A stretch of DNA of 64,000 nt from Dehalococcoidales bacterium (GCA_034409565.1 DAOUMS010000015.1:23227-87226), one strand, 5' to 3'. Shown: positions 2,881-63,599, counted from the stretch's first letter. Made by a program: numbers and translations. The notes: generated by a model not told the origin, from the letters alone.

Positions 2881-2995
2881 GTAAACAGATTGTAACAGTT
2901 GTAGTTTACAGCAGATATTATTAAGTGTGGGAGGATGGGTAGTCGTTAAGCATACAAGCCAGATTCACCCCGGTGGCACCCGCGACAAAGCAGCC

Positions 2996-5857
2996 ATGCC
3001 AAAAAAGATTCTAACTGTAATCATAATTCTCGTTACCGTAGCTGCCTTAGGTGGCCAGCTGTTCTGCTTGGTCGATTATGCCGGTAAAGTGGCACAGGCG
3101 GAATCCGGTCCTGACCTGACGGTGGCGGTGATAACCAGCTCACCGGAAACACCGACCTTCGAGGATGAGGTAACCTTCACCGTCACCATCAGCAACCAGA
3201 GCGCGGTCGCTTCAGGTCAGTGCTATGTTGCTTATTACATTGATGGTGACTATCTTGACCGCGACTATGTGCCACCGCTCGACCCCGGCGCCAGCACCAA
3301 AAACACCTTCACCTGGACCGCTGAAGCCGGCATACATGACATTACTGCGGTGGTCGATTATCTGGAAGAGGTGAATGAAAGCGTTGAGGGCAATAATCAA
3401 AAAACCTTCACCCTATCCACACTGGGCGCAGACCTGATAATCGATTCTATAACCTGGTCGCCGTCGAACCCGGCCGTTAGCGAGACAGTGTTTTTCGCGG
3501 TAACGGTTAAAAACCGGGGCGCCGTTGTTGCCATCTCAAGTCGCGTGTATTTTTACATCGGCGGCGCTTCCCGCGGTTACCAGGATGGCGGCAAAATATA
3601 CCCCGGGGAAACACTGACCCTGACCTTCCCCTGGTATACCAAGACAGGCCCGCATGAAGTCAAGGCCATCGTCGACCAGAGCGACATTGTGCCCGAAACC
3701 GATGAAGACAATAATGAAATGACGGCCGTCTTTTCTGTCCTGCTTCCCGACCTAATCATAGATGAAATCTCAAGGTCTCCCGAGGCACCATCAATAGGCG
3801 ATAATGTAAGCTTCATGGTATCTGTCACCAACCAGGGCAGTGCTGCGTCAGGCATGTCAGTGGTCGATTTTTACATGAATGACAAACTTTTAGATACAGT
3901 ATGGGTCGAGGCACTGGAGCCCGGTGCTTCCGGAAACGCGACTTTTTACTGGATTGCCAGGACAGGCACATACGATATAAAAGCCACCGTGACCACAGGC
4001 GGTTTTCTTGCCGAGAGTGACAAAACCAATAATGAAAAAACCTTCACCTTCTCACCAGGTCTGGCTGACTTTATTGTCCAGGATATCACCTGGTCACCAA
4101 CCGAGCTATCGATAGGCGACAGGATTACCTTTACCGTGACCGTGATGAACCAGGGGGCCGGCGACGCGGCTGATTCCCGCGTGGAGCTGTATATTGGTGG
4201 CGTCAAACTGAATCATAAGGAATTCGGGGATATTGATGCCGGTGATACAGTGGGAGTAACTTTTACCTGGAAAGCCACGGAAGGTTCACACCAGATAAAG
4301 GCCATTATCGATACCAGAGATGAAGTGCCCGAGAGCGATGAAACAAATAACGAAAAAACGGTCACCTTTTTAACACCAACCTCTGACCTTATCATTGAGC
4401 AGATAATCTGGATCCCATCAGAGCCAGTTATCGGTGACATGGTGACCTTTACCGTTACGGTTAAAAACCAGGGAGGGGCCGGCTCTGATTACACCCATGT
4501 TAACTATTACATTGATGACAATCAGGTTTCTTCCGACTACATAGAGCCAATATCAGCTAACACCACCGATAATCAGACCTTTACCTGGACGGCCATCGCT
4601 GGCGAACATGTTATTAAAGCTTTCGTTGACTTTATTAACACCGTTAGCGAAAGCGATGAGAACAATAATGAAAAGTCAATCACCCTGACTCCAATTGGTC
4701 CCGACCTCATCGTCGAAAGTATAGACTGGTCGCACAACGACCCGCCGGTGGGAGAAACGGTTACCTTTACCGTAATCGTACAGAATAATGGCGGTAGCCG
4801 GGCAGACGCTTCACTGGTCCACATCTACATTGATGACACCCCACGGGGTTATCAGGACATTCCAGAGGCGGACCCGGGCACAAAAATAATCAGAACCTTT
4901 GACTGGAAAGTGACAGCAGGCACGCACTCCATACGCGCTATCATTGATGAATCGAATCAGATAGCCGAGACTAATGAAGCCAATAATGAGACCCTGATTG
5001 GCTACCCCATGCCTGACCTTACTTTGGAAGCGGTGACGTGGAGCCCAGTAAACCCGGCACTGGGGGATAAAGTTACCCTGACCACATACGTCAAGAACGA
5101 GGGCAGCCACCAGGCGGGCGGTTTCCAGCTATGCTTCTACGTCGATGATAGTGCCGCGGATTACCGGGAAATTCCGCAGCTAGACGCCGGTGCGCGCGTG
5201 ACCAATACCTTTTCCTGGGAGGCCTCCATCGGCCCGCATACCCTTACCCTGGTCACTGATGACGCCAATGCCATTTCCGAGGGAGTTGAGAACAACAATG
5301 AAGAAACGGTCACCTTTGCCATTACCGCCCCTGACCTGACCATTGCGTCCATCACCGGGCCCGCTGAAGAACCTGCCGCCAGTGACAACGTGACCTTCAC
5401 GGTGACTATCAGAAATCAGGGTGATGCCAGGGCCAGATATTCATCGGTGAGCTACTACGTCGATGGCGAGCACATGGCCTCAGGACAAATCGAGCCCCTT
5501 GAGCCTGACGCTGAAATCAAGAAGACTTTCAGTACCTGGATGTCTCAGGGCGGACCGCATACGCTCAGGGTGGTCATTGATGAAGGCAACCAGCTTCCAG
5601 AGAGCAGCGAAGTGAACAATGAAGGGGCGTTTAATTTTACCAGCGCCAACGTCACCCCTTCGCCAGAGCCGGCGTCTGCCCCCAGCACAAAACCCAGGCC
5701 GAGGCCGACCCCCATTCCACTGACACCAACCGAAGAAGATGAGGGAGATGACAAGACAGCATTACTGTTTTTTGGCGTGGCGGTGCTGGTATTCGGTGCC
5801 ACCCTGATTTTCTCACTGCTACGGGAGATGCGAAAAAAGAGGGACCACCTGCCCTAG
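2996..5857 (+). CDS. Membrane-anchored surface protein with 8 tandem CARDB (Ig-like) domains
   Basis: Signal-like N-terminus MPKKILTVIIILVTVAAL (ATG 2996 preferred to GTG 2927). Eight repeats of the form xDLxI/V...TFTVTVxNxG...ExxExNN, then a Pro/Thr linker, a C-terminal TM helix and a basic tail (REMRKKR). Confidence 0.88.
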   Translation: MPKKILTVIIILVTVAALGGQLFCLVDYAGKVAQAESGPDLTVAVITSSPETPTFEDEVTFTVTISNQSAVASGQCYVAYYIDGDYLDRDYVPPLDPGASTKNTFTWTAEAGIHDITAVVDYLEEVNESVEGNNQKTFTLSTLGADLIIDSITWSPSNPAVSETVFFAVTVKNRGAVVAISSRVYFYIGGASRGYQDGGKIYPGETLTLTFPWYTKTGPHEVKAIVDQSDIVPETDEDNNEMTAVFSVLLPDLIIDEISRSPEAPSIGDNVSFMVSVTNQGSAASGMSVVDFYMNDKLLDTVWVEALEPGASGNATFYWIARTGTYDIKATVTTGGFLAESDKTNNEKTFTFSPGLADFIVQDITWSPTELSIGDRITFTVTVMNQGAGDAADSRVELYIGGVKLNHKEFGDIDAGDTVGVTFTWKATEGSHQIKAIIDTRDEVPESDETNNEKTVTFLTPTSDLIIEQIIWIPSEPVIGDMVTFTVTVKNQGGAGSDYTHVNYYIDDNQVSSDYIEPISANTTDNQTFTWTAIAGEHVIKAFVDFINTVSESDENNNEKSITLTPIGPDLIVESIDWSHNDPPVGETVTFTVIVQNNGGSRADASLVHIYIDDTPRGYQDIPEADPGTKIIRTFDWKVTAGTHSIRAIIDESNQIAETNEANNETLIGYPMPDLTLEAVTWSPVNPALGDKVTLTTYVKNEGSHQAGGFQLCFYVDDSAADYREIPQLDAGARVTNTFSWEASIGPHTLTLVTDDANAISEGVENNNEETVTFAITAPDLTIASITGPAEEPAASDNVTFTVTIRNQGDARARYSSVSYYVDGEHMASGQIEPLEPDAEIKKTFSTWMSQGGPHTLRVVIDEGNQLPESSEVNNEGAFNFTSANVTPSPEPASAPSTKPRPRPTPIPLTPTEEDEGDDKTALLFFGVAVLVFGATLIFSLLREMRKKRDHLP

Positions 5858-27739: not shown

Positions 27740-28825
27740 ATGAAAAGTACCAATGCTAAAAAATGGGCAAAACTGGCGGTAATCGTGGCTATCTTTGCCA
27801 CCCTGCTACTGCTACCACAACCGATTCAGTACCATATTGCCTCTGGTCAGGGTTATGGTTATGGCGGAGGTGGAGGGGGGCCATCAACCACCGGCGGCGG
27901 AGTCAGTAGCATAACCACTTCGGGCGGTGAATTCACCGAGGATGCCACCTTCGAGTCGGCAGATGGAGACCTCGCCATCTCAATTCCAGAAGGCACTACC
28001 GGTAAGACCAAGACTGGTGCTCCCCTGCCAGAAATAAAGATAACCAAAGACTTGACCCCTCCTCCGCCACCAGAGGACGCGGATTTCGTCGGCTTTCCCT
28101 ATGACCTGGAACCGGATGGGGCCACTTTCGAGCCAGCCATCACCCTCACTTTCACCTATGACCCGAACAAGCTACCGAGCGGGGTGGGGCCGCAAAGCCT
28201 TACCATAGGTTACTACGACATAGATACCAAAAAGTGGGTGCCTCTTGAGGCCAAGGATTTGACCATTGATCCAGAGACCAATACTATCACGGCCAAGATA
28301 AGCCACTTCACCAATTTCAGCGTCCTGGCAAGCACGGCACCGGCGGAAATCACCGTCAGCGGTCTGGTAGTTCCGGCGACCGATATTGGCATAGCCGAAA
28401 AAGCAACTGTCAGCGCGATGGTCAGCAATAGCGGCGATGTCGCTGGCACCACCACGGTAACGTTCAAGATAAACGGTGTGGCTGTGGCCAGCAAGGATGT
28501 CAAGCTGGCCGGTCATGAGTCCAAGTCTGTGTCCTTTGCCACCGTTCAAGGTAAGGCGGGCAGCTACAAGGTGGATGTCAATGGGCTGACCGGAACGTTC
28601 ACCGTGAAATCGGCACCGGTTAAGCCGGTAGTGGTAACAGCAACGGTGCCATCAATAACAGCGCCATCGGTGACACCTGCAGCACCCGCGGCACCGGCGG
28701 TGCCAGCCGCGCCCACACCAACCCCCGAACCAACGCCCTGGCTGGCAATTATTATCTCTCTAGTCGCAACCATCATTGTTGCCGTTATAATCGTCTGGTA
28801 CTATGGCTTCCGCACTCAATTCTAA
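27740..28825 (+). CDS. Membrane-anchored surface protein (Gly-rich linker, ZU5/GPS-like beta domain, CARDB-like Ig domain, Pro/Ala linker, C-terminal TM)
   Basis: Signal-like N-terminus, GGGGGG, YDLEPDGATF...ITAKISHFTNFSVL, VSNSGDVAG...DVNGL, TM helix WLAIIISLVATIIVAVIIVW. Confidence 0.75.
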   Translation: MKSTNAKKWAKLAVIVAIFATLLLLPQPIQYHIASGQGYGYGGGGGGPSTTGGGVSSITTSGGEFTEDATFESADGDLAISIPEGTTGKTKTGAPLPEIKITKDLTPPPPPEDADFVGFPYDLEPDGATFEPAITLTFTYDPNKLPSGVGPQSLTIGYYDIDTKKWVPLEAKDLTIDPETNTITAKISHFTNFSVLASTAPAEITVSGLVVPATDIGIAEKATVSAMVSNSGDVAGTTTVTFKINGVAVASKDVKLAGHESKSVSFATVQGKAGSYKVDVNGLTGTFTVKSAPVKPVVVTATVPSITAPSVTPAAPAAPAVPAAPTPTPEPTPWLAIIISLVATIIVAVIIVWYYGFRTQF

Positions 28826-30641: not shown

Positions 30642-31559
30642 TTATACCACTGGTCTCGGCATCAGGCCCGACTTCTGCACGACCTCCGGAACGATATCCT
30701 CCCAGCCCACCGCCATGATGTGTATGCCGTGCACGCCGGGCATATCCTTCAGTTGCTCAATAATTTCCAGGATGATTTTCACGCCCTCTTCTTTGGGAGA
30801 ATCAGTTTTTTCCATCCGGGCCACGACTTCATCGGGAACGGCCACGCCGGGAACGTAGTCCCGCATGTAACGGGCCATACCGGCGGAACGGATGGGAATG
30901 ACGCCGGCCAAAATGTGCACCTTTTTGTCCAAGCCACGCTCCGTCAGCATCTCCATCCACTTGGCGAACCTGGGTACATCATAGACGGCCTGTGTCTGAA
31001 TGAAATCGGCGCCGGCCTTCACCTTCTTGCCCAGCCGGCTCACCCGGTATTCAAACGGGTCGGCAAAGGGATTGGCCGCCGCCCCGATGAACACGGGCAC
31101 TTCCCCGGAGATGTCTTCTCCGGAAATGAATTTATGCTCATCACGCATTATTTTCAGCGCTTGCAGCAGCTGAATGGAGTCGATATCAAAAACGCCCTTG
31201 GCCCCGGGATGGTTGCCGAACTTCTGGTGGTCGCCGGAAAGACAGAGGATATTGCCGATGCCGAGGGCAACCGCACCTAGCACATCGCCCTGCAGTGCCA
31301 GCCGGTTGCGGTCGCGGACGACCATCTGCATCACCGGCTCAATGCCCTGCTGCTTCAGGAGCAGGCAGCCAGCGATGCTGGACATGCGCACGATGGCCGT
31401 CTGGTTATCGGTGACGTTCACCGCATCGCAGCAGTGGCGGAGCAGTTCACCTTTCTTGCGTATGGCCTCGGCGCTGGTACCTTTGGGCGGTCCCGCCTCG
31501 GCAGTCACGGCAAATTTACCGCTGGCCAGTATTCGTTCCAGTTTGGTTCCGGCTTTCAT
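30642..31559 (-). CDS. metF: Methylenetetrahydrofolate reductase, MetF (MetVF type)
   Basis: TAEAGPPKG, VNVTDNQ, RDRNR, LSGDH, KVKAGADFIQTQ. Confidence 0.9.
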   Translation of the reverse strand: MKAGTKLERILASGKFAVTAEAGPPKGTSAEAIRKKGELLRHCCDAVNVTDNQTAIVRMSSIAGCLLLKQQGIEPVMQMVVRDRNRLALQGDVLGAVALGIGNILCLSGDHQKFGNHPGAKGVFDIDSIQLLQALKIMRDEHKFISGEDISGEVPVFIGAAANPFADPFEYRVSRLGKKVKAGADFIQTQAVYDVPRFAKWMEMLTERGLDKKVHILAGVIPIRSAGMARYMRDYVPGVAVPDEVVARMEKTDSPKEEGVKIILEIIEQLKDMPGVHGIHIMAVGWEDIVPEVVQKSGLMPRPVV

Positions 31560-31568
31560 CTTTACCTC

Positions 31569-32246
31569 CTATGAGGTAGTGGTACACTCCGCCTCTACAT
31601 CTATTTTCCGGGGCCCACCGGTAACACTCATACTCCAGTCTTTGACCGGCTCAATTGCCTCCATTTCATCGAGCCGCCCCATCTCCGAGAGGCGGTCGTA
31701 GATGAGCTGCCAGGCGCAGGGAATATCTTCCGATACCTCGCACTTGCCCCCCGACGAGCCGCCACAGGGCCCGTTGAGCAGGCCCTTGGAGCACCGCACC
31801 AGCGGGCAGATGGCGGCCGTCCGGCCGAGCACGCAGCTGCCACACTGCAGGCAGACCTCGCTAAAGTGTCCCGGGCTGTCCTCAATGCCGATAAACAGGG
31901 TGTTCAACGCCGGATACACCGGCTTTTTGTCCTTCATATGCAGGGCTATGGTCTGCACGCCAATGGCACAGGTCATCGCCAGCACGCAATCGGCCTGGCC
32001 GATTCTCCCCGCCTCTTCCTCCAGCGCATACTTGGTCAGCTCATCGCAGGCGGTGGGAATTATCATCCAGCCGGTGACCTTCTTGCCGCTGCCCTCGAGC
32101 TTTGCCTTCATGTCCAGGACTTCGGACTTGCCGCCGGTATGGCACATGGTGGCACAGGTACCACAGCCGATGATATACACCTTCTGGCACTTCTCAAGGT
32201 AACCCATCACCTCTTCAATCGGTTTCTGATTGGTAATCGTCTTCAT
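31569..32246 (-). CDS. metV: MetV, small Fe-S/Zn subunit of MTHFR
   Basis: GCGTCATMC and CLQCGSC...CPLVRCSKGLLNGPCGG...CEV...CAW. Directly upstream of metF. Confidence 0.85.
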   Translation of the reverse strand: MKTITNQKPIEEVMGYLEKCQKVYIIGCGTCATMCHTGGKSEVLDMKAKLEGSGKKVTGWMIIPTACDELTKYALEEEAGRIGQADCVLAMTCAIGVQTIALHMKDKKPVYPALNTLFIGIEDSPGHFSEVCLQCGSCVLGRTAAICPLVRCSKGLLNGPCGGSSGGKCEVSEDIPCAWQLIYDRLSEMGRLDEMEAIEPVKDWSMSVTGGPRKIDVEAECTTTS

Positions 32247-32258
32247 CTCCTCACCTCC

Positions 32259-33455
32259 TTACCTGGCGACTCGCCTCTCATACTCATCACGGAAATACTG
32301 CAGGCTGTCCAGCACCGCATTGGGCGCCGCCTGCCCCAGACCGCACAACGACGAGAGCATCATGGCGCTGGACAGGTCTTCCAGATTCTGCATCTCTTTC
32401 CGTGAGCCTTCACCCTGGTGAAACTTTCCCAGTACCTCTACCATCACCTCGGTTCCCTGGCGGCAGGGAGTGCACTTGCCGCAGGACTCCTCGGCTAAGA
32501 ACTCCATAGTGCGGTGAATAATATCGATTACATCGCGACTCTGGTCGTAGACGGTAACGGCACCCGCCCCCAGCACCGACTCAAAAGCGAGGGGGGTGTC
32601 CAGTTTCTCGGCAGGCAGTATGCGGCCGGTGGCGCCACCAATCTGCACCAGTTTTATATTTTCTGCCATCGCCAGCTCTTCGACCAGCTCCCGTAACGGG
32701 CTGCCTAGCACCATTTCATACACGCCGGGTTGCGCAACGTCGCCACTGACGGAAAAGACCTTGGTGCCTTTACTCCTCTCCGTGCCCATCCGGCTGAACC
32801 AGTCGGCCCCGTTTAAAATAATCGGCGGGATATTCATCAGCGTTTCCACGTTATTGATAATGGTCGGCTTGCCCCAGAGTCCGGAGGTGGTGGGGAAGGG
32901 AGGCCGGTAGCGCGCCTCTCCCCTTTTCCCCTCGATGGAGTCCATCAGCGCCGACTCCTCGCCGCAGATGTAGGCACCGGCGCCTTCACGTATCTCCAGG
33001 TTAAAGCCATTTAAATACCCTTTTTGCTTCACCTGCTCGACGGCGTTCTGCAAATGGTCAAGGAGATAGTGATATTCGGCACGAAGATAGATATAGCCCT
33101 GCCCGGCCCCAATGGCTTGGCCGGCAATGAGTATCCCTTCGATGAGGGTGAAGGGGTCTTTCTCCAGAATGTAGCGGTCTTTGAACGTGCCCACCTCGCC
33201 CTCATCGGCGTTGCAGATAACGTACTTATCTTCGCCGGATGCGGTGCGGGCGCCTTCCCACTTGATGCCGCAGGGAAAGCCAGCCCCACCCCGACCCCTC
33301 AGCCCGGAAGCTTTTATTTCACCGGTAATCTGCTCCGGGGTCATCTCCTGACGCGCTTTGGCCAGAGCTTTAAAACCATCTTTTTCCAGATAGCTGTCAA
33401 TTCGCTCCGGGTCGATTACCTCACAGTTTTTCAGTACCACCCGCTGCTGCGGCAC
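32259..33455 (-). CDS. NuoF/HoxF-like FMN- and NADH-binding subunit
   Basis: SGLRGRGGAGF, NADEGEVGTFKDR, GAGAYICGEE, ESCGKCTPC...CGLG [4Fe-4S]. Confidence 0.9.
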   Translation of the reverse strand: MPQQRVVLKNCEVIDPERIDSYLEKDGFKALAKARQEMTPEQITGEIKASGLRGRGGAGFPCGIKWEGARTASGEDKYVICNADEGEVGTFKDRYILEKDPFTLIEGILIAGQAIGAGQGYIYLRAEYHYLLDHLQNAVEQVKQKGYLNGFNLEIREGAGAYICGEESALMDSIEGKRGEARYRPPFPTTSGLWGKPTIINNVETLMNIPPIILNGADWFSRMGTERSKGTKVFSVSGDVAQPGVYEMVLGSPLRELVEELAMAENIKLVQIGGATGRILPAEKLDTPLAFESVLGAGAVTVYDQSRDVIDIIHRTMEFLAEESCGKCTPCRQGTEVMVEVLGKFHQGEGSRKEMQNLEDLSSAMMLSSLCGLGQAAPNAVLDSLQYFRDEYERRVAR

Positions 33456-33471
33456 GAGCTCGCCTCCAAAA

Positions 33472-33912
33472 TTATTTATATGATTTTAGAATCTGCTTTA
33501 TCTTCCCTGGAGTCAGGTCAACGTGTGCGTCCTGGTTTATCAGCATGGCCGGGGCATGGTCGCAGAGGCCGATGCAATTGACCAGCTCGAAGGTAAACCT
33601 GCCATCGGGCGTCGTCTCCCCGGGGCCAATCCCAAGCTCTTTTCCTACCGCCTCCATTATCATTTCCGCATTCTTAAGGTAGCAGGGCAGGCTTTTGCAG
33701 ACCCGGATAACGTTCCTGCCCAGCGGTCTTACAGCCAGAAATGAATAGAAGCTGGCGACGCCGTAGACCTCATGAACCGGGACATTAAGGGATGCCGCCA
33801 GCGCGGCCATAACCTCTTCGGGCACGTGGCCGTACCGCTGCTGCACCTCTTTCAGGCGCACCACCAGGTCAGACCGCTCTGCTGGCATTGCTATAATCCC
33901 TTTATCAGCCAT
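33472..33912 (-). CDS. NuoE-like [2Fe-2S] subunit
   Basis: GVASFYS, VCKSLPC, VNCIGLCDHAP. Confidence 0.88.
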   Translation of the reverse strand: MADKGIIAMPAERSDLVVRLKEVQQRYGHVPEEVMAALAASLNVPVHEVYGVASFYSFLAVRPLGRNVIRVCKSLPCYLKNAEMIMEAVGKELGIGPGETTPDGRFTFELVNCIGLCDHAPAMLINQDAHVDLTPGKIKQILKSYK

Positions 33913-33930
33913 ATTACCATCTCCGTTGGC

Positions 33931-34611
33931 TCAGCCCTTGATAATAAGCGCTTTAGCCGCCTTCTCTTCCCCGGGTTTTCTTGCTTTCCTCAGCGCTCCC
34001 GATGGGCAGAGCTCGATACAGGCATCACAGCTTTCGCAGGCCTCGCTGCCCAGAGGCTGGTCGCAGCCGTAAACCACCTTGCTGTCAAAACCACGATATG
34101 CCTTGCTGAAAAGCGGCCCGCTGCCTTTATCCTTGCAGGCGATAACGCACCGCCAGCACTGCACGCACTTGGACATATCGCGGACCATTTTTGCGTTTTC
34201 GTCCTCGACCGGATAATAGTGCTTCCGTACCCGGAAACGGGGCAGGCCTACTTCCAAATCGGCGGCAATGCGGCGCAGCTCGCAGATATTGGCCTTGTCA
34301 CAGACCAGACAGACATCAGGGTGGCTGGCCAGCATCAGCTCGACCAGCACCCGGCGCGTGGCAATAACTTTGGGCGAGTGGGTCTGTATGACCATGCCCT
34401 CGGCAACCGGCGTATGGCAGGAGCCGACCAGTGTCCGTAAGCCCTCCACCTCGACGACGCAGAGTCGGCAGGCACCGATGGGCGGCAGGTCCGGAATATG
34501 GCAGAGGGTGGGGATATCAATGCCGTTTTCCCTGGCCACCTCCAGGATGGTCATACCGGGACGGCTACTTACCTTTTTACCGTTTATGGTCAGGTTTATC
34601 TTTTTCTCCAC
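33931..34611 (-). CDS. NuoG-N/HoxU-like poly-Fe-S subunit with no catalytic domain
   Basis: IPTLC...GACRLC...SC [2Fe-2S]; HPDVCLVC...C His-ligated [4Fe-4S]; CVQCWRCVIAC and CESCDACIELCP ferredoxin motifs. Confidence 0.85.
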   Translation of the reverse strand: MEKKINLTINGKKVSSRPGMTILEVARENGIDIPTLCHIPDLPPIGACRLCVVEVEGLRTLVGSCHTPVAEGMVIQTHSPKVIATRRVLVELMLASHPDVCLVCDKANICELRRIAADLEVGLPRFRVRKHYYPVEDENAKMVRDMSKCVQCWRCVIACKDKGSGPLFSKAYRGFDSKVVYGCDQPLGSEACESCDACIELCPSGALRKARKPGEEKAAKALIIKG

Positions 34612-34809
34612 TGTAGCCAGACGCCGTACTTAAACGTTTTCGATTACAGTATTAAACAGCAAGGGGTGCACACACCCCAGCACCCCCGTAGTAATAACTA
34701 CTATGCTACCACAGAGCTTTTTCGACCACAAGTCCCCGCGGAAATACGCCATTATTCTTGGCTGTTTGCCGTTCAATTTCCGGCTGTGATAAACTCTTAA
34801 TGACTTCCA

Positions 34810-55197: not shown

Positions 55198-56193
55198 TTA
55201 CCGCTTCTTAAGCTTCTCGGTAAGCAGCGGCACCACCTGGAACAGGTCGCCCACGATGCCATAGGTAGCCACCTCAAAGATGGGGGCGCGAGAGTCATCA
55301 TTTATGGCGACAATGCACTCCGAGGTCTGCATGCCCACCACGTGCTGCAGTGCCCCGGAAAGACCCACTGCAATGTAAAGTCTGGGGCAGACCGTTTTCC
55401 CGGTCTGGCCTATCTGGTGCGAGTAGCCAATCCACCCCTCATCCACCACGGCACGCGTGGCGCCCACCGCCGCGCCCATGACCTGCGCCAGCTCCCGGAG
55501 CATCTCAAAATTCTCCCCTTTCCCCAGACCGCGCCCCCCGGCCACGATGACATCCGCCTCCTCGATCTTCACCGTCTCCACAATCTCAGCAACAAAGTCG
55601 AGCAGCTTCGTCCGCGAGGTAATGCGCTCCCGGTCAAAATTCACTTTTATTATTTCGCCTTTGCGGCGGTTGTCCGGCTCACGCCGGGAAAAGACGTGAG
55701 GACGCACCGTCGCCATCTGCGGTCGCGCTTCGGGACAGGTAATGACCGCCATGATATTGCCACCGAACGTGGGTTTCGTTTGTAGCAAAAGCCTTTTCTC
55801 GACATCAACATCAAGCTCAATACAGTCGGCGGAAAGCCCGGTGGGCAGCGCCGCCGCCACACGGGGATTGAAAGCTCGCCCCAGTGCGGTGGCCCCGGCC
55901 AGGACAATCTCCGGTCGGTGCTGCTGGATAAGCTCGGTGAGTTGCTGCGTTAATAGGTCTTCCTGGTTGCTGGCCAGGTCGGGACTATCCACAAGATAAA
56001 CTTTATCGGCGCCGTGGGCAATCAACCGCTCAACCTCTTTAACGCCATGACCACAACAGACGGCGCTTAATTCCACCGACAGTGCATCGGCCAGTTCCCG
56101 GCCTCTGGCTAAAAGCTCGTAGGCGACGCTCTTGATTTCGCCGTTTCGCTGCTCGGCGAATACCCAGACTCCCTGATAAGCCCTGTCTCCCAT
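55198..56193 (-). CDS. etfA: Electron transfer flavoprotein alpha subunit
   Basis: TGLSADC, VAGGRG, VGATRAVVD, QIGQTG, GLSGALQH. Confidence 0.93.
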   Translation of the reverse strand: MGDRAYQGVWVFAEQRNGEIKSVAYELLARGRELADALSVELSAVCCGHGVKEVERLIAHGADKVYLVDSPDLASNQEDLLTQQLTELIQQHRPEIVLAGATALGRAFNPRVAAALPTGLSADCIELDVDVEKRLLLQTKPTFGGNIMAVITCPEARPQMATVRPHVFSRREPDNRRKGEIIKVNFDRERITSRTKLLDFVAEIVETVKIEEADVIVAGGRGLGKGENFEMLRELAQVMGAAVGATRAVVDEGWIGYSHQIGQTGKTVCPRLYIAVGLSGALQHVVGMQTSECIVAINDDSRAPIFEVATYGIVGDLFQVVPLLTEKLKKR

Positions 56194-56205
56194 ACCTCTC
56201 TGCCT

Positions 56206-56991
56206 TTATACCAGTCCGTTATCCTTCAGCCGGCCAATAAGGCAAGCCACCTGGTCGGCCACGTCCCCCTGAAATATCTCACCGTGGCAGACCCGCTCTG
56301 GGGAAAATATCCTTATGACCCGGGTAAAAGAGCCGGACAGGCCAACCTTATCCGGTTCTAAGTTTAACTCTTTGCTGCCCCAGGCAGGGATGGCGGCGCT
56401 TTTCGACCGGGCGATGCCGCGCAGCGAGGGCAGGCGCGGCGTATTTATTTCCTTGACCACGGTGATTACTGCTGGCAAGGGGCTGGCTATGATTTCATAC
56501 CCGCCCTCCACCATGCGCCGGACGCGCATGACGCCATCGGCCACTTCTTCTATCTGGCTAACGTAAGCGAGAAACGGGACTGCCAGCATCTCGGCGAGCT
56601 GCGGGCCGACCTGTCCGGTATCACCGTCTAGCGTCTGCCGACCGCACACGATAAGGTCGTACTGCCCCAGCTTGCGCAGCGCCACCGAAAGCGTATAAGA
56701 GGTTGCCCAAGTATCAGCACCGGCAAAAGCCGGGTCGCTTAACAGAATCCCCTCATCGGCACCAAGTGAAACGGCTTCTCGCAGGGCAGCTTCCGCCTGC
56801 GGGGGGCCCATGCTGATGGCGGTTACCTTGCCGCCAAACCGCTCCCTCAGCCGGACGCCTTCCTCAATGGCATAGGTATCAAAGGGATTGATGATGTTTT
56901 CGATTCCCTGGCGGATAAGGGTATTGGTGGCGTGGTCAATTTTCACCTGCGTGGTGCCCGGCACCTGCTTCAGGCAGACGACGACATTCAT
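56206..56991 (-). CDS. etfB: Electron transfer flavoprotein beta subunit
   Basis: CLKQVP, NPFD, SMGP, FAGADTWAT, GRQTLDGDTGQVGP. Confidence 0.93.
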   Translation of the reverse strand: MNVVVCLKQVPGTTQVKIDHATNTLIRQGIENIINPFDTYAIEEGVRLRERFGGKVTAISMGPPQAEAALREAVSLGADEGILLSDPAFAGADTWATSYTLSVALRKLGQYDLIVCGRQTLDGDTGQVGPQLAEMLAVPFLAYVSQIEEVADGVMRVRRMVEGGYEIIASPLPAVITVVKEINTPRLPSLRGIARSKSAAIPAWGSKELNLEPDKVGLSGSFTRVIRIFSPERVCHGEIFQGDVADQVACLIGRLKDNGLV

Positions 56992-58148
56992 TCCGTCCGT
57001 GCCTTTCGTTTTCTCAGTTCCGCGGCAATGGCGCCGCGCAGGACCTGATTGGCGCCTTCATATATCTGGGTGATTTTGGCGTCCCGCATCATCTTCTCCA
57101 CCGGGTAGTCCTTCATATAGCCAGTGCCGCCGCAGACCTGCACCGCGTCCGTGGTCACTCTCATGGCCACATCGGAGGCGAAGACCTTGGCCATGGACGA
57201 CTCTTCCGTAATCCTCTTGTTAGTGCTGCTGTCCACCGTCCTGGCCGCCGCATAGACCAGCGCCCGGGCGGCTTCCACCTGTATCGCCATCTCCGCCAGC
57301 ATATCCTGCACCACCGGCAGGGTGATAATCGGCTGGCCGAACTGGATACGCTGCTGGGCATAGTCCACCGCCGCTTCCAGTGCCCCCTGCGCAATGCCCA
57401 CCGCCTGTGCGCCGATTCCCGGCCGCGAGCGGTCGAAGAGCCGCATCGCCTGGATAAATCCCAGGCCCGGCCTGCCGACGAGGTTCTCCTCGGGAACGAG
57501 GCAGTTGCGGAAGATGAGCTCCCCGGTGGCTGATGCCCGGATGCCCATCTTCTTTTCCTTCTTACCAAAGGTGAAGCCCGGCGTCCCCTTCTCCACGAGA
57601 ATGGCACTGGCACCACGGGCACCCTTGGTCTTATCGGTCAGAGCAATCACCGTGTAGAGCTCGGCTTCACCGGCATTGGTGATAAACTGCTTGGTGCCGT
57701 TGAGCACATAGCCCCCTTCAACCTTATCCGCGGTCATCTTTACGGCACCGGCATCGCTGCCCGCCGTTGGCTCACTGAGGGCGAAAGCGGTCAACTTTTT
57801 GCCGGCGGCAATATCCGGGAGGTACTTCCTTTTCTGCTCCTCGGTACCATACTCTATCACCGTATAGGCACCGAGGGCATTTACGGCATAAGTGGTCGCC
57901 ACGCCGCCACACACCCGGCTCAACTCCTCCACCACCAGACACAGTTCCAAGCAGCCACCGCCCAGCCCTTCATAATCTGCGGGGACGAAAACGCGCAACA
58001 TATCGGCCTCAGACAGGTCTTTGATGATTGCCCAGGGGAACTCTCCCTTTTCGTCGAGTTCGGCGCGGACGGGCAGGATTCTCTCCTCAGCAATCTTCCG
58101 GGCCAGGCTTTTGATTGTCCGCTGTTCTTCGGTTAAGAAATAATCCAA
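56988..58148 (-). CDS. Acyl-CoA dehydrogenase (short-chain/butyryl-CoA type)
   Basis: FALSEPTAGSD, GTKQFITN, KMGIR, QRIQFG, RDAKITQIYEGAN. Confidence 0.92.
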   Translation of the reverse strand: MDYFLTEEQRTIKSLARKIAEERILPVRAELDEKGEFPWAIIKDLSEADMLRVFVPADYEGLGGGCLELCLVVEELSRVCGGVATTYAVNALGAYTVIEYGTEEQKRKYLPDIAAGKKLTAFALSEPTAGSDAGAVKMTADKVEGGYVLNGTKQFITNAGEAELYTVIALTDKTKGARGASAILVEKGTPGFTFGKKEKKMGIRASATGELIFRNCLVPEENLVGRPGLGFIQAMRLFDRSRPGIGAQAVGIAQGALEAAVDYAQQRIQFGQPIITLPVVQDMLAEMAIQVEAARALVYAAARTVDSSTNKRITEESSMAKVFASDVAMRVTTDAVQVCGGTGYMKDYPVEKMMRDAKITQIYEGANQVLRGAIAAELRKRKARTE

Positions 58149-59480: not shown

Positions 59481-60102
59481 ATTGCCCCCGGTATTCCCCG
59501 GGCAACAGCCCGGCAATCTGCCCCATTATGGAGTGGGTGAACTCCGCAAGCTGTTTTCTGGTCACCTTGCCATTTACTGACGGCAGGGTAAATGGGCGCC
59601 CGATATTCACCGTGATTTCCGGACGGCGTAACCACCAGTTAAAGCCCGTTATTTTTTCGGTGCCACAAATTCCCACCGGCAGGATGGGAACACCGTTACG
59701 CACCGCAATGAGTGCCGGCCCGGAAAAAGCATTGGCCAGTTGCGCTTCCAGGCTGCGCCGGCCCTCCGGAAAGGCGATTAGCGCACCTCCCCGGCCAAAC
59801 AATTTTTCGGCAAAGCGCAGGGCGTCCCGGTTCATGCCCCCGCGCCGTATGGGAAAGGCGCCACATCTATGGAAGATATAACGCGGTATCCGACCGCGGA
59901 ATAGCTCCTCCTTGGCCAGAAACATCGCTTCCCGTTTGATGCCGATACCCACCAGCGGCGGGTCCGCCATGCTGAGATGGTTCGATACCACCAGCAGCGG
60001 CCCTTCAACCGGAACATGCTCTCTGCCGAACACCCTGAACCTGGTTAAGAGAAACGCAAGCACCTGCGTCAAAGTACGGCCAACATAGTAAATCCAGTGC
60101 AT
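59461..60102 (-). CDS. plsC: 1-acyl-sn-glycerol-3-phosphate acyltransferase
   Basis: NHLSMAD, FLAKEEL, FPIRR, FPEGRRS. Confidence 0.9.
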   Translation of the reverse strand: MHWIYYVGRTLTQVLAFLLTRFRVFGREHVPVEGPLLVVSNHLSMADPPLVGIGIKREAMFLAKEELFRGRIPRYIFHRCGAFPIRRGGMNRDALRFAEKLFGRGGALIAFPEGRRSLEAQLANAFSGPALIAVRNGVPILPVGICGTEKITGFNWWLRRPEITVNIGRPFTLPSVNGKVTRKQLAEFTHSIMGQIAGLLPGEYRGQYGGEKS

Positions 60103-60135
60103 TTCTTCCTACAGGAAGATATGGTATTTCTCTCA

Positions 60136-60164
60136 ATTATAGCGGTGGGGCGAGTCAAAGGCAA
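60136..60164 (-). promoter_or_regulatory. Putative promoter of plsC-ispH
   Basis: TTGCCT-17 nt-TATAAT on the minus strand. Confidence 0.5.
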
Positions 60165-60178
60165 TTTAGGTTGATGCA

Positions 60179-60922
60179 CTAAGGAATAGGGAATACGTTA
60201 CCATTACTGTGGAAATCCCTCAGGACTTTCCCATAAACTCCGTTTACAAGGTCGTTTAACTTTTTAACTATGCTATTACAATAGTTTATTGCAACCCGAC
60301 GCCGTGTAAATGTGAAGGGCCTAGTTTGAGGATTGTCAGGCAATTTAATATCCTCTGTCAATTTATACTTGTTTTCAACCTGGTCATAGCTAAATTTTAT
60401 ATTATCATACCTAATTAAACTTTCATGTGTTGTGCAATGCCTAAAGGGTTCGAATTCGATAAACCATCGCTGGCGAATTTGCATATCTAGAAATCGGCTA
60501 GTTTCCGACGCGTTATGACTAACTGATAACATTTGATTAGCGGTGGATATGTATATATTACGAGGCACTCGGGGAACTGTAAATAAAGTATACAATTCGT
60601 GTCCAAGCGTATCCATCACACTCATAGCATTCATAAAAAAACCATCTAGAAAAAGATTCATATACAGACAATATCCATGTGTATCAAGCAGAGGTTCTTG
60701 TGCTGTTGTGACTGCAGATTGTGTAGATTGTGTGGCCGTAGAGGAAGGGAATACCTTAAATTGATTTATATCAAGGTCTTGAATTGACTTACGATAATAC
60801 TCTACTGACCACAGCTTTTGACTCACAGAGCTATGAAAAAGATTGAAATCAAACAATAAGCGACTATCAGTTACTGCCCTATTATAGAATTCACGTATTT
60901 GTTGATGATCTGGTTGTGACAT
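60179..60922 (-). CDS. Putative HEPN-superfamily RNase (Cthe_2314-like)
   Basis: Helical protein with FLDGFFMNAMSVMDTLGHEL and the Rx4H motif RHCTTH (60425-60442). AT-rich. ATG 60922 preferred to TTG 60934. Confidence 0.65.
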   Translation of the reverse strand: MSQPDHQQIREFYNRAVTDSRLLFDFNLFHSSVSQKLWSVEYYRKSIQDLDINQFKVFPSSTATQSTQSAVTTAQEPLLDTHGYCLYMNLFLDGFFMNAMSVMDTLGHELYTLFTVPRVPRNIYISTANQMLSVSHNASETSRFLDMQIRQRWFIEFEPFRHCTTHESLIRYDNIKFSYDQVENKYKLTEDIKLPDNPQTRPFTFTRRRVAINYCNSIVKKLNDLVNGVYGKVLRDFHSNGNVFPIP

Positions 60923-60956
60923 ATATTTACACAACCTTATAACATACTAATCGAAG

Positions 60957-61697
60957 TCATTCCCCATGATATTCTTTTCTCTGTATCCAGTTAGGTTTTT
61001 CGGAAGGAGCAAACAACAGGACATCGATGGGACCGCCAACATTCTTTGGTCGTGCCTGAAAACGCATCGTATCTATAGTAGTTCGAATAGCAAACACCGC
61101 AAAATCTATAGCATCTTGTAGAGTCATAGCATCCCATATTATTGGAGCCGGGGCACGAATGACTTTTTCCTGTCCTTTCTCGTCTGCTATTACCACGGGA
61201 TTTATTATGGAAGTAAGTATGTCAGTCTGCCCGGACCAGCTGGCACCATACGCAACTGTCTTGTTCGGTCTTACATTTCGTCTTTCAACTTTATTATTTC
61301 CTACATGGCAGCGAAAAACGTAAGGAATGCTGAGTTTTTGTTCTTTTTTATATCCCGCAACGTGGAACCCGGCATCTGCTTTAGGTGCAAAACTACGAAA
61401 ATAGTCTATTAATTTCTGAGGGATTGTTGTAACATCGTCTGCTGCTACTAATGTTTCTTCAATGAAACCTCTTAAGTATCGGGCCATAGGCACGCCGTTA
61501 ATCATATCCTGACCATAGTTTGATATACCGACCTGTTGCTCCTCTAGTAAAAAGGTCTTAGTAACAGCATCTGAATTCACTGTCTCGACCTTCACATCTC
61601 TTCCGTCTGGAGCTTTTCCTTCAACGGTCACAGATTGCCTGCTATCAGAAGCCATAACAATACCTTCTGGAACGTAAACAACAATAATTAATGACAT
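60957..61697 (-). CDS. Ntn-hydrolase, proteasome beta-like, with N-terminal Ser
   Basis: (M)SLIIVVYVPEGIVMASDSR...K, FHVAGY, DAIDFAVFAI...VGGPIDV. RBS GGAGG. Confidence 0.7.
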   Translation of the reverse strand: MSLIIVVYVPEGIVMASDSRQSVTVEGKAPDGRDVKVETVNSDAVTKTFLLEEQQVGISNYGQDMINGVPMARYLRGFIEETLVAADDVTTIPQKLIDYFRSFAPKADAGFHVAGYKKEQKLSIPYVFRCHVGNNKVERRNVRPNKTVAYGASWSGQTDILTSIINPVVIADEKGQEKVIRAPAPIIWDAMTLQDAIDFAVFAIRTTIDTMRFQARPKNVGGPIDVLLFAPSEKPNWIQRKEYHGE

Positions 61698-61744
61698 TCC
61701 GAACCTCCAATACTCTTACATGGCTGTAATTAAAAAGCAACAGA

Positions 61745-61772
61745 ATTATAATCCTAATATAGAAAATGTCAA
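61745..61772 (-). promoter_or_regulatory. Consensus sigma70 promoter of the Ntn-HEPN cassette
   Basis: TTGACA-16 nt-TATAAT on the minus strand. Confidence 0.75.
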
Positions 61773-61823
61773 TACCTAGATTAACTAGCTACATTAAAAA
61801 ATTGACGAAGTGTTACTTTTGAA

Positions 61824-63599
61824 CTACAGAATCAAGTTCAGCAGGCCGCCCACGGAAAGGGAAACTATAACCATGACGGCGGCGGCCTTGAGCATCCCGG
61901 TGGTGCCCAGCTCCCGCAGCAGGACGACAAAGGTGGCGATGCAGGGGAAGAACATGGCCAGCACCACGCTGCCCACGACCAGCTGTCCTGAGGTTAGCGC
62001 CAGAGGCGCCAGCATACCCACGGCCACGTCCTTGCGCAGGAAGCCGATGGCCAGCGCCACCACCGCTTCCTTGGGCAACCCCAGCAGGCCGGTTACCACC
62101 GGCGCCGTGAAATCGGCGATGGCATTGAAGACACCCAGGGCATACAGTATGTTCATCACCAGAACCGCGCCCAGAATAATCGGGATGGCTTCACGCAGGA
62201 AACCATGAACCCTGAGCCACAGCTTCTGCAACACGGTACGCCACGGCGGTATACGATAGGGTGGAATCTCGATTAATAGCTCGGGGCTGAAGCCCTTTAT
62301 CAGGCGATTGAGAATAAAGCCGAGTATGACCCAGACCAAGAACAGGGTCCCGTAGACGATGGCGACATACTGAATCCCGCGCTGTCCCACCAGGCCAAAG
62401 ACCATGGCCTGCAGCGCCGCGCAGGGCACGGCAATGGAAATAAGCGTGGCCGCGATGAACCTCTCCCGTTTGCTTTCCAGTATCCTGGTCGCCAGAATTG
62501 CCGGCACGTTGCAGCCAAGCCCCAGCAAGGTGGGGATAATGGCGTAACCGTGAAGGCCCAGGCGGTGCATGATGGTATCCATGAGAACGGCCAGACGCGG
62601 CAGATAGCCGATGTCCTCCAGCAGCCCGAGCAAGAGGTAGAAAGAGACGATGTATGGCAGCACCATGGCAAAAGGCACATAGAGCCCGGTGGTCAGTAAA
62701 CCGAACGACTCGACGTAATTGACCTCACCGGCCGCGATATTGCCGAGCAGTGCTGCATGGAAGATGCCGGAGCCGCCCATCAGGTTGCTCAGCCACAATA
62801 TCACCGGCGTCCAGAGGTGCTCGAACAGGGGGTCCAGGACGTAGGTTATCAGGCTTTCCCCGACGAAGCGGATACCAAAGAATGTGCCGGCAAGGACGAC
62901 CGCCGCGATGACTATGCCGGTTATTGGTCGGACGCTGGCATCTTCCAGGCGCTCCAGCCAGGTATGATGACGGTGGGTCACCTGCTGCACCTGTTCCACA
63001 ATGCTGCCAATGGCCGCCCACCGCTCATTGTGGCTGGCCTGGGGCAGTCTAAGCGCTCTGGCGGCGGGAAGGCTTTCCACCAGCTCTTTTATGCCCTGCC
63101 CGGCCACCGCCACCGTGGGAATAACGGGAACGCCGAGCAAATCCTCAAGCTTCTTTAAATCAATGTGGATGCCGCGGTGACCGACGTCGTCCCACATGTT
63201 CAGGGCTATGACCATCGGGATGCCCTTTTCCAGCAACTGGAGCGTCAGGTTTAGGTTTCTCTCCAGATTGGTGGCATCAACCACATTGATGACCACATCG
63301 CCGGTGGCAAGCATTTTCAGGGCGATTTCCTCTGCCTCCGAGGACGGCTCCAGCCCGTAAGTGCCGGGCACATCAACCACCTCCGCCACCTCCTCCCCAA
63401 TTTTCGTCAGTCCCTGCGTATAACCAACCGTAGTTCCCGGATAGTTGGAGGCGATAACCCGCACGCCTGTCAGTCGTGAAAAAACGACGCTCTTGCCGAC
63501 ATTGGGGTTGCCCATGAGGAGAATTTTCCTCAGGCCGCTTTTTTTACCTCTACCCTTTTTAACGCGGGGGATCGCCCCGTGACACGCCATTCCCCTCAC
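61824..63599 (-). CDS. feoB: Ferrous iron transporter B
   Basis: GNPNVGKS, NYPGTTV, DVPG, NLERNL, NMWD, then a membrane domain with GYLPRLA, GLGCNVPA and FFPC. Confidence 0.93.
   Translation of the reverse strand: MRGMACHGAIPRVKKGRGKKSGLRKILLMGNPNVGKSVVFSRLTGVRVIASNYPGTTVGYTQGLTKIGEEVAEVVDVPGTYGLEPSSEAEEIALKMLATGDVVINVVDATNLERNLNLTLQLLEKGIPMVIALNMWDDVGHRGIHIDLKKLEDLLGVPVIPTVAVAGQGIKELVESLPAARALRLPQASHNERWAAIGSIVEQVQQVTHRHHTWLERLEDASVRPITGIVIAAVVLAGTFFGIRFVGESLITYVLDPLFEHLWTPVILWLSNLMGGSGIFHAALLGNIAAGEVNYVESFGLLTTGLYVPFAMVLPYIVSFYLLLGLLEDIGYLPRLAVLMDTIMHRLGLHGYAIIPTLLGLGCNVPAILATRILESKRERFIAATLISIAVPCAALQAMVFGLVGQRGIQYVAIVYGTLFLVWVILGFILNRLIKGFSPELLIEIPPYRIPPWRTVLQKLWLRVHGFLREAIPIILGAVLVMNILYALGVFNAIADFTAPVVTGLLGLPKEAVVALAIGFLRKDVAVGMLAPLALTSGQLVVGSVVLAMFFPCIATFVVLLRELGTTGMLKAAAVMVIVSLSVGGLLNLIL

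Follow-up and report, generated by a model that had tools for sequence, protein, structure and literature searches.

The window analyzed here (64,000 nucleotides (nt) of DNA from a Dehalococcoidales bacterium, GCA_034409565.1 DAOUMS010000015.1:23227-87226; all positions are counted from its first letter) contains at 30642-34611 five co-oriented open reading frames (ORFs) on the minus strand, separated by gaps of 18, 16, 12 and 9 nt, the last two of which encode a putative methylenetetrahydrofolate reductase (MTHFR) of the MetFV type. An earlier note, made from the sequence alone, had described five tightly spaced co-oriented genes, encoding an Fe-S protein without an H-cluster or Mo domain, NuoE, NuoF, MetV and MetF; our analysis of the ORFs and of their matches in Pfam and NCBIfam bears out this description. 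The operon comprises, from its leader to its last gene:

34612-34809, minus strand: leader/promoter region, 198 nt, between the divergent surE and the first gene of the operon
33931-34611, minus strand: HoxU-like (HydA-N-terminal-like) Fe-S subunit, 226 aa, with Fer2_4, NADH-G_4Fe-4S_3 and Fer4_Nqo3 domains
33472-33912, minus strand: NuoE-like subunit, 146 aa (2Fe-2S_thioredx, PF01257, 160.8 bits)
32259-33455, minus strand: short NuoF-like subunit, 398 aa, with Complex1_51K, SLBB and NADH_4Fe-4S domains (Pfam)
31569-32246, minus strand: MetV, 225 aa (PF12225, 121.8 bits)
30642-31559, minus strand: MetF, 305 aa (MTHFR, PF02219, 129.5 bits)

Subunits of the operon and the bifurcation question

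MetV proteins of MetFV-type enzymes are recognized by the NGPCGG motif, Cys ligands for two [4Fe-4S] clusters and a gene position immediately upstream of metF (Yi et al. 2021, Microbiol Spectr 9:e00958-21; PMC8515935). The window MetV carries the motif as LNGPCGG, twelve of its Cys residues are invariant in 80/80 sequences, and its gene directly precedes metF, with the 9-nt gap between them. It is predicted to be the Fe-S/zinc electron-transfer subunit of a MetFV-type methylene-tetrahydrofolate (methylene-THF) reductase. An AlphaFold2 model of MetV has a mean predicted local distance difference test score of 60.9, with only the N-terminal alpha/beta domain confident and the Cys-rich C-terminal domain at ~30, and Foldseek searches with this low-confidence model returned only generic Rossmann-like or periplasmic-binding folds (E-value > 1e-3). 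MetF remains well short of the cut-offs for models of the E. coli type (TIGR00676: 68 bits, cut-off: 293.7; NF009432: 20.9 bits, cut-off: 382), NCBIfam matches it best to the MTHFR half of NF006396, and the MTHFR structures in the PDB match it only at E-values of ~1e-11; these scores place it with the MetFV type, as a putative flavin-binding catalytic subunit, rather than with the NAD(P)H type of E. coli. As judged from sequence, the metV-metF pair is a candidate MetFV-type reductase by all these features. The studied MetF proteins of this type do not oxidize NAD(P)H themselves, and where NADH is the donor a separate NADH-binding subunit is present; in Acetobacterium woodii and Moorella thermoacetica the NADH site resides on the accessory subunit, not on MetF (PMC8515935).

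The 226-aa HoxU-like subunit contains 15 Cys ligands, each of them kept in 54-56 of its 56 orthologues. Together with one His they are predicted to bind a [2Fe-2S] cluster (C37/C48/C51/C65, kept in 56/56), a His-ligated [4Fe-4S] cluster (H97/C101/C104/C110, kept in 56/56) and two ferredoxin-type [4Fe-4S] clusters (C149/152/155/159 and C192/195/198/202, kept in 54-56/56). The top NCBIfam matches are "NADH-dependent [FeFe] hydrogenase, group A6" (210 bits) and HoxU (192 bits, cut-off: 333), of which only the N-terminal ~210 residues are covered, and the closest chains in the PDB are the HydA1 proteins of Thermoanaerobacter kivui and A. woodii (8a6t_A, 7q4v_A), matched over residues 1-208. Because of this ligand set, conserved across the orthologues, the predicted cluster layout is that of the four-cluster N-terminal part of the [FeFe]-hydrogenase HydA. 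Pfam and NCBIfam report no H-cluster, molybdopterin or other catalytic domain in the protein, which stops at the point where the catalytic domain would usually begin, and we propose that it serves as an electron wire from NuoF to MetV. The NuoE-like protein passes the NF005722 model (155.4 bits, cut-off: 141), and the predicted ligands of its thioredoxin-like [2Fe-2S] cluster (C72/C77/C113/C117) are kept in 51/51 orthologues.

NuoF exhibits the predicted NADH/flavin mononucleotide (FMN) site motifs GLRGRGGAGFP, NADEGEVGTFKDR and GAGAYICGEES, which are at least 90% conserved in 55 orthologues, and a single predicted [4Fe-4S] cluster with the ligands C325/C328/C331/C371 (kept in 51-55/55). Its alignments to the ~600-aa HydB-type chains of known structure (7t2r_B, 7q4v_B) are limited to the core residues 115-525; therefore the domains that carry the extra clusters B2-B5 of HydB/BfuB, [2Fe-2S] at the N-terminus and 2x[4Fe-4S] at the C-terminus, are missing from it. 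GAFMDR, GAGAFVCGEE and GGPSG of the aligned Bfu structures are replaced in the window protein by GTFKDR, GAGAYICGEE and GGATG. Among the short NuoF forms the T/K pair occurs in 53/56, the Tyr in at least 51/56 and an SLBB motif of the GGA type in 41/56 or more, the last two counts being lower bounds, as simple patterns missed the remaining short-form sequences. The numbers A202 and M204 used below for the first of these motifs are those of A. mobile BfuB, corresponding to 232 and 234 in T. maritima (Tm), and the Phe near FMN is Tm 367. According to Schut et al. 2022 (PMC9304861), all true Bfu enzymes possess the BfuB clusters B2-B5 together with A202/M204, while their non-bifurcating homologues have only B1. 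Losey et al. 2020 distinguish bifurcating A/E...M from non-bifurcating T/S...K/S/A in the NADH site, and list as further discriminators Phe versus Tyr beside FMN and GGPSG versus other sequences in SLBB. The window NuoF has neither the Bfu marker residues nor the B2-B5 domains, and by every published sequence criterion (Losey et al. 2020; Schut et al. 2022) it classifies as non-bifurcating.

The earlier note had drawn the same conclusion from GTFKDR, which is indeed one of the published discriminators, and from the missing HydB domains; the Tyr in place of Phe and GGATG in place of GGPSG concur with it. It had also allowed for an optional link to ferredoxin, and for this the window enzyme offers no sequence support: Pfam analysis of the five genes revealed neither a ferredoxin-binding domain nor a second flavin subunit (HdrA, EtfAB), nor did it identify any other catalytic subunit. 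We predict that the window enzyme is not coupled to ferredoxin reduction.

Two familiar assignments of such genes were rejected. As an N-module of complex I, NuoF (TIGR01959: 441 bits, cut-off: 558.65) and the 226-aa "NuoG" (138 bits, cut-off: 470) fall short of their models and NuoE alone passes; moreover, the ORFs scanned in the window (~35 of the ~50 larger ones, a scope that applies to all such statements below) include no membrane nuo gene. As a HoxEFU diaphorase, both HoxU (192 bits, cut-off: 333) and HoxE (107 bits, cut-off: 224) remain below threshold, and the operon contains no hydrogenase subunit.

Conservation and variation in Dehalococcoidia

Homologues of the window MetV at 73-95% identity comprise thousands of metagenomic proteins, the few named ones of which are labelled Dehalococcoidales or Chloroflexota. 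A scan of one genome per GTDB species, based on an alignment of these MetV sequences, identified at least 136 species-level genomes that hold this MetV clade. The locus counts given here rest on the best 80 of the 136 relatives (MetV identity 60-93%), which were returned with their flanks; 79/80 of these loci are labelled Dehalococcoidia, Dehalococcoidales or Chloroflexota. The sole exception, L053 (loci are cited by our own labels), bears the name Calditrichales bacterium, while its operon and surE flank are typical of Dehalococcoidia, so that the label is probably a binning error rather than a sign of gene transfer.

Synteny was evaluated with the five proteins of the window as queries in those 54 loci that extend 3.4 kb or more upstream of MetV. 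A short NuoF of 396-428 aa lies directly upstream of MetV in 48/54, and 47 of these 48 also possess NuoE and the HoxU-like subunit in unchanged order; the remaining six have a long NuoF (4 loci), no NuoF (L047) or a masked sequence (1 locus). On shorter contigs, fragments of NuoF abut MetV wherever sequence is present. The earlier note had named a lack of conservation of the linkage in relatives as grounds for giving up its interpretation, and the survey found the linkage retained. The gene order persists down to 60% MetV identity, with the flanking surE and queA altered: below 75% MetV identity, only 3/24 short-type loci still have surE on the upstream side, and queA occurs in 0/24 of the loci with at least 4.5 kb of downstream sequence, while the core of the operon is kept in all short-type loci. 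Since the core outlasts its turned-over flanks, the conservation of the linkage is not merely an inherited neighbourhood; recurring in 48/54 loci, the arrangement is not a chance juxtaposition. In pairwise comparisons across the genomes, NuoF identity correlates with MetV identity (r=0.81) as tightly as MetV identity does with MetF identity (r=0.73), and therefore the module has travelled as a unit.

A few relatives carry a different module in the slot between the HoxU-like subunit and MetV. In L030 (4840-9647) and L061 (1060-7211) this slot holds a 161-aa HydC-like NuoE and a HydB-like protein of 639 or 653 aa that has both extra cluster domains, N-terminal [2Fe-2S] and C-terminal 2x[4Fe-4S], as well as GAFMDR, the Phe and GGPSG; the HoxU-like proteins of these two loci are orthologous (61% identical) to that of the window. 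On the strength of these features we regard L030 and L061 as encoding a candidate MetVF-linked Bfu enzyme. In L040 (895-4020) and L056 (1610-4735) the 1041-aa protein directly upstream of MetV is a fusion in which a BfuB/HydB-like core is linked to an FAD/NAD(P) domain like that of GltD/NfnB; its residues 568-1038 match NfnA (9n5u_A) and StnC (8oh5_C), which suggests an Nfn/Stn-like transhydrogenase module wired to MetVF. All four long-form relatives read GAFMDR, GAGAFVCGEE and GGPSG. The survey of the Bfu family (PMC9304861) does not list an MTHFR-linked member.

In L042 (6718-8004) and L079 (69-1613) the FMN/NADH motifs of NuoF are eroded (e.g. GLQERGGDGS, AYADGREVGTSKDK) beside an intact MetV, and L042 is also devoid of NuoE; the input module may be decaying there, or these may be errors of the metagenome-assembled genomes.

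The variant loci of the relatives show that MetVF and the HoxU-like adaptor form the constant part of the system and the input module its variable part; the window itself contains no variant. It is a tentative possibility, in our view, that MetVF plus the HoxU-like subunit constitute a fixed catalytic cassette of Dehalococcoidia whose input module was swapped in the course of evolution, plain NADH being the common type and Bfu-type or BfuB-GltD modules being confined to a few genomes.

MetV and MetF are encoded by adjacent genes in 36 loci, including the window, and separated by an insert of more than 800 nt in 40, roughly every second relative. The insert was examined in two loci, where it encodes a histidine kinase (L024: 8751-10208; L050: 8667-9815); the domains of these insert kinases are HisKA and HATPase_c, sometimes with PAS. 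Two single-domain response regulators follow metF in L036 (7004-7849) and L050 (10764-11673). The window operon has no genes for a histidine kinase or response regulator. A database protein of 527 aa (P0121) is a fusion of MetV with a histidine kinase, hinting that MetV-like Fe-S domains can be used as redox sensors. Among 150 diverse MetV representatives, fusions to MetF, histidine kinase, Rieske and ferredoxin (ferredoxin-MetV) were observed, and none to NuoF or the HoxU-like protein.

Downstream of the operon, L036 (8031-12068) contains genes for the small and large subunits of a NiFe(Se)-hydrogenase. Immediately behind them lies another, divergent MetV-MetF pair (42-43% identity), which may represent a hydrogenase-linked MTHFR. 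L030 possesses a second HydBC-like pair just upstream of its MetVF operon, the HydB-like protein of which is 58% identical to the MetV-adjacent one; it is followed by the gene of a 594-aa protein (2979-4763) whose HoxU/HydA-N-terminal-like Fe-S domain is combined with a C-terminal part resembling HdrA (NF040770, 478 bits).

Proposed reaction and alternative explanations

We consider it probable that the five genes encode one soluble, NADH-dependent and non-bifurcating methylene-THF reductase of five subunits. In this enzyme, a hydride from NADH would be transferred to the FMN of the short NuoF, from which single electrons would pass via the [4Fe-4S] cluster of NuoF, the [2Fe-2S] cluster of NuoE lying off this path beside the flavin, as in complex I; the electrons would then run along the four-cluster chain of the HoxU-like subunit into the Fe-S clusters of MetV and reduce the flavin of MetF, which would convert 5,10-methylene-THF to 5-methyl-THF. 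The redox potentials are -320 mV for NAD+/NADH and about -200 mV for methylene-/methyl-THF; by these established values the NADH-driven reduction is exergonic by roughly 23 kJ/mol. By analogy, MetVF would occupy the place that an H-cluster, Mo-pterin or NiFe module takes in related NADH-linked enzymes. To the observed gene content, conserved cofactor ligands, conserved linkage and non-bifurcating signature of NuoF, this model adds complex formation, NADH as the donor, the direction of electron flow and a physiological role in one-carbon (C1) catabolism or in methionine/methyl supply, all of which we infer.

Yi et al. 2021 (PMC8515935) divide MTHFRs into the E. coli type, the 2S MetFV, the 3S RnfC2-MetFV and the 6S HdrABC-MvhD-MetFV enzymes, which agrees with the partners of MetVF that the earlier note had named (RnfC2 and HdrABC-MvhD). 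The 3S (type III) enzyme of A. woodii, RnfC2-MetF-MetV, resembles the predicted one in that MetFV is combined with a separate FMN/NADH Fe-S input subunit and in being NADH-dependent and non-bifurcating, but its input is the single RnfC2 (a MetV-like domain fused to RnfC), whereas the window has three proteins, NuoF, NuoE and the HoxU-like one, which together are predicted to bind six Fe-S clusters. Matches of the rnfC/RsxC models to the NuoF of the window are weak (46-48 bits, cut-offs: 246-345), and there is no RnfC-type gene in the operon. The window enzyme may thus be a functional analog of the A. woodii one, with NuoE, NuoF and the HoxU-like subunit in place of RnfC2. The 6S (type IV) enzyme of M. 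thermoacetica likewise has a MetFV core that receives electrons of NADH via an accessory module, which there consists of HdrABC-MvhD, the HdrA flavin being presumed to bifurcate; neither the five operon genes nor their immediate neighbours were found to have Hdr or MvhD domains. On the side of the input module, the non-bifurcating H-cluster enzyme described in 2020 shares the NuoE-like subunit and a short NuoF-like subunit (T/S-K, Y, no GGPSG) feeding an N-terminal HydA-type Fe-S chain, which leads there to a catalytic H-cluster domain and in the window to MetV-MetF. Finally, the Bfu family (HydABC, NiFe-HydABCSL, NfnABC/StnABC; Schut et al. 2022) provides the structures to which the NuoF core and the HoxU-like subunit score highest and has the same modular layout, but all BfuB-specific clusters and marker residues are missing from the window.

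Genes for NuoEFG homologues upstream of metFV were noticed by Yi et al. (PMC8515935) in Dethiosulfatarculus sandiegensis, Desulfobacterales and Chloroflexi and termed the uncharacterized "X type". The window possesses this gene arrangement, NuoE/F/G-like genes directly upstream of metV-metF, as do 47-48/54 of the relatives; Yi et al. assign the MetFV of D. sandiegensis to their phylogenetic group III, and D. sandiegensis was compared by its published description only. Yi et al. give the gene arrangement and a guess at bifurcation, while the window "NuoG" turns out to be a 226-aa HoxU-like protein and NuoF to be of the short, predicted non-bifurcating form. An electron-bifurcating or -confurcating MTHFR, in which the NADH-dependent reduction of methylene-THF drives the reduction of ferredoxin by a second NADH, was proposed by these authors by analogy to the NuoEFG-like modules of bifurcating hydrogenases. 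It agrees with the overall similarity of the NuoF core and the HoxU-like subunit, which is highest to subunits of bifurcating HydABC, and with the genuine Bfu-type HydBC-like module found in the same position in four relatives, from which it follows that the MetVF/HoxU-like scaffold is compatible with such a module. For the window enzyme itself we nevertheless find bifurcation distinctly improbable, given a NuoF without any defining Bfu domain or marker residue, of a short form common to 48/54 surveyed loci, in an operon that offers neither a ferredoxin-binding domain nor an HdrA/EtfAB flavin subunit.

It is unlikely, if conceivable, that two separate enzymes are encoded in one operon, namely a stand-alone ferredoxin-dependent MetVF and an independent diaphorase or NADH module (of a formate dehydrogenase or hydrogenase) made of NuoE, NuoF and the HoxU-like subunit. 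Heterodimeric, ferredoxin-dependent MetFV is known from Clostridium ljungdahlii and T. kivui (PMC8515935), orphan NuoEF operons of unclear function were described in Chloroflexi genomes (Hug et al. 2013), a fragment of an FdhA gene is present at 9-1538 of the window, and among the relatives the eroded NuoF beside an intact MetV (L042, L079) and the lack of a NuoF match upstream of MetV (L047) point the same way. Against this stand the adjacency and order of the genes, kept in 48/54 genomes despite the turnover of the flanks, the absence of another catalytic subunit from the operon and the end of the HoxU-like protein ahead of a catalytic domain, whereas the fdhA fragment is ~29 kb distant and on the other strand. 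Furthermore, by the established redox values, an uncoupled NADH-to-ferredoxin diaphorase would work uphill. The same complex might also run in reverse, oxidizing methyl-THF to methylene-THF with NAD+ for the oxidation of methyl groups or acetate, while a partner organism or some other sink keeps the NADH level low. An oxidative role of MetFV has been proposed in the literature for syntrophic acetate oxidizers, and the in-operon histidine kinase and two response regulators of the relatives suggest condition-dependent use. We think this very improbable for the window: oxidation by NAD+ is endergonic under standard conditions, the scanned ORFs give no sign of methyl-donor metabolism, and with its identical architecture this alternative departs from the five-subunit NADH-dependent reductase in direction alone.

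Besides the published proposal of bifurcation, several points weigh against the NADH-dependent, non-bifurcating five-subunit reductase. The NuoF core scores nearer to HydB/BfuB (451 bits to 7t2r_B, 430 to 7q4v_B) than to Nqo1 of Thermus (372 bits), so that the short NuoF could have arisen by loss of domains, and the published markers might then not fully foretell how it behaves. Sequence searches reveal no homologue of MetV in the PDB at E-value <= 0.01, and because of this the contact between the HoxU-like subunit and MetV is one that we purely infer. The patterns used in the MetV scan (MKTITxQKP, GWM[VI]IPTA) are clade-specific and measure conservation within this MetV clade. Genes of CODH/ACS (carbon monoxide dehydrogenase and acetyl-CoA synthase), fhs and folD were not found among the scanned ORFs of the window, and the window gives no support to the role in Wood-Ljungdahl/C1 flux that the earlier note had suggested. 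In the literature we found no paper in which a NuoEF-MetFV enzyme was purified or assayed.

To that extent the earlier note, which did not recall the arrangement as characterized, was right, as we found no biochemical study of it; the arrangement as such, however, is already recorded in the literature and is not a new architecture, since Yi et al. 2021 had flagged NuoEFG-metFV. Sewell et al. 2017 moreover reported from marine Chloroflexi a second, A. woodii-like copy of MetVF with regulator genes flanking metF. The interpretation given in the earlier note is thus supported in part, being largely right on the architecture and on the non-bifurcating nature of NuoF and overstated on novelty. What is new here is the quantitative survey of synteny in Dehalococcoidia, the prediction that the common form is non-bifurcating, and the candidate Bfu-type and Bfu-GltD modules in the same slot of a few relatives.

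Reduction of methylene-THF is the most exergonic step in the methyl branch of the Wood-Ljungdahl pathway, and how its energy is conserved varies among organisms and is debated; to our knowledge, only three MetFV architectures have been purified so far. Dehalococcoidia are abundant in sediments and the subsurface, and the NuoEF-linked MetVF is widespread in their uncultured members. The prediction of an NADH-dependent, non-bifurcating enzyme alters the ATP yields estimated in metabolic models of these organisms, and it corrects the sole published guess on the "X type". The occurrence of predicted non-bifurcating and Bfu-type inputs on one MetVF scaffold provides a comparative system for the question of what makes a NuoF-type flavin bifurcate. 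Should the Bfu-type variants prove active, methylene-THF would for the first time serve a Bfu-family enzyme as its high-potential acceptor, and these variants would represent a ferredoxin-reducing, energy-saving MTHFR such as has long been postulated for acetogens, to which the window enzyme would be a natural non-bifurcating control.

Surroundings of the operon in the window

The operon is adjoined by queA downstream and by the divergent surE upstream, the latter followed by acpS and an MFS transporter gene; queA, surE and acpS are housekeeping genes. Rfam was searched for an S-adenosylmethionine or THF riboswitch in the 198-nt leader; neither a riboswitch nor another RNA family matched the operon region at E-value <= 1, and none matched anywhere in the window at the gathering score. 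A scan for promoter and terminator consensus sequences gave counts at or below those expected from shuffled sequence and identified no element in the leader; by reading of the sequence, a candidate GC hairpin is located at 34663-34678.

At 9-1538 (plus strand) lies an incomplete gene, truncated at the start of the window, whose product corresponds to the C-terminal two-thirds of the alpha subunit of a formate dehydrogenase (602 bits to TIGR01591, over positions 190-671 of the profile). The partner subunits lie beyond the window, and the next gene encodes an MFS transporter (1635-2789). Because of its distance of ~29 kb and its opposite strand, the fdhA fragment was ruled out as a partner of the operon.

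An electron-transfer flavoprotein (Etf) alpha subunit is encoded at 55198-56193 and an acyl-CoA dehydrogenase at 56988-58148 (both minus strand). The ORF between them (56206-56991) may encode EtfB, and the genes at 55198-58148 are possible candidates for a bifurcating Etf/acyl-CoA dehydrogenase system. A large protein of the secreted type (976 aa) with eight CARDB repeats is encoded at 2927-5857 and a second CARDB ORF is found at 27740-28825 (both plus strand); both are probably cell-surface proteins. The GC content drops to 0.41 at 60001-62000, compared to 0.50-0.60 in the rest of the window.

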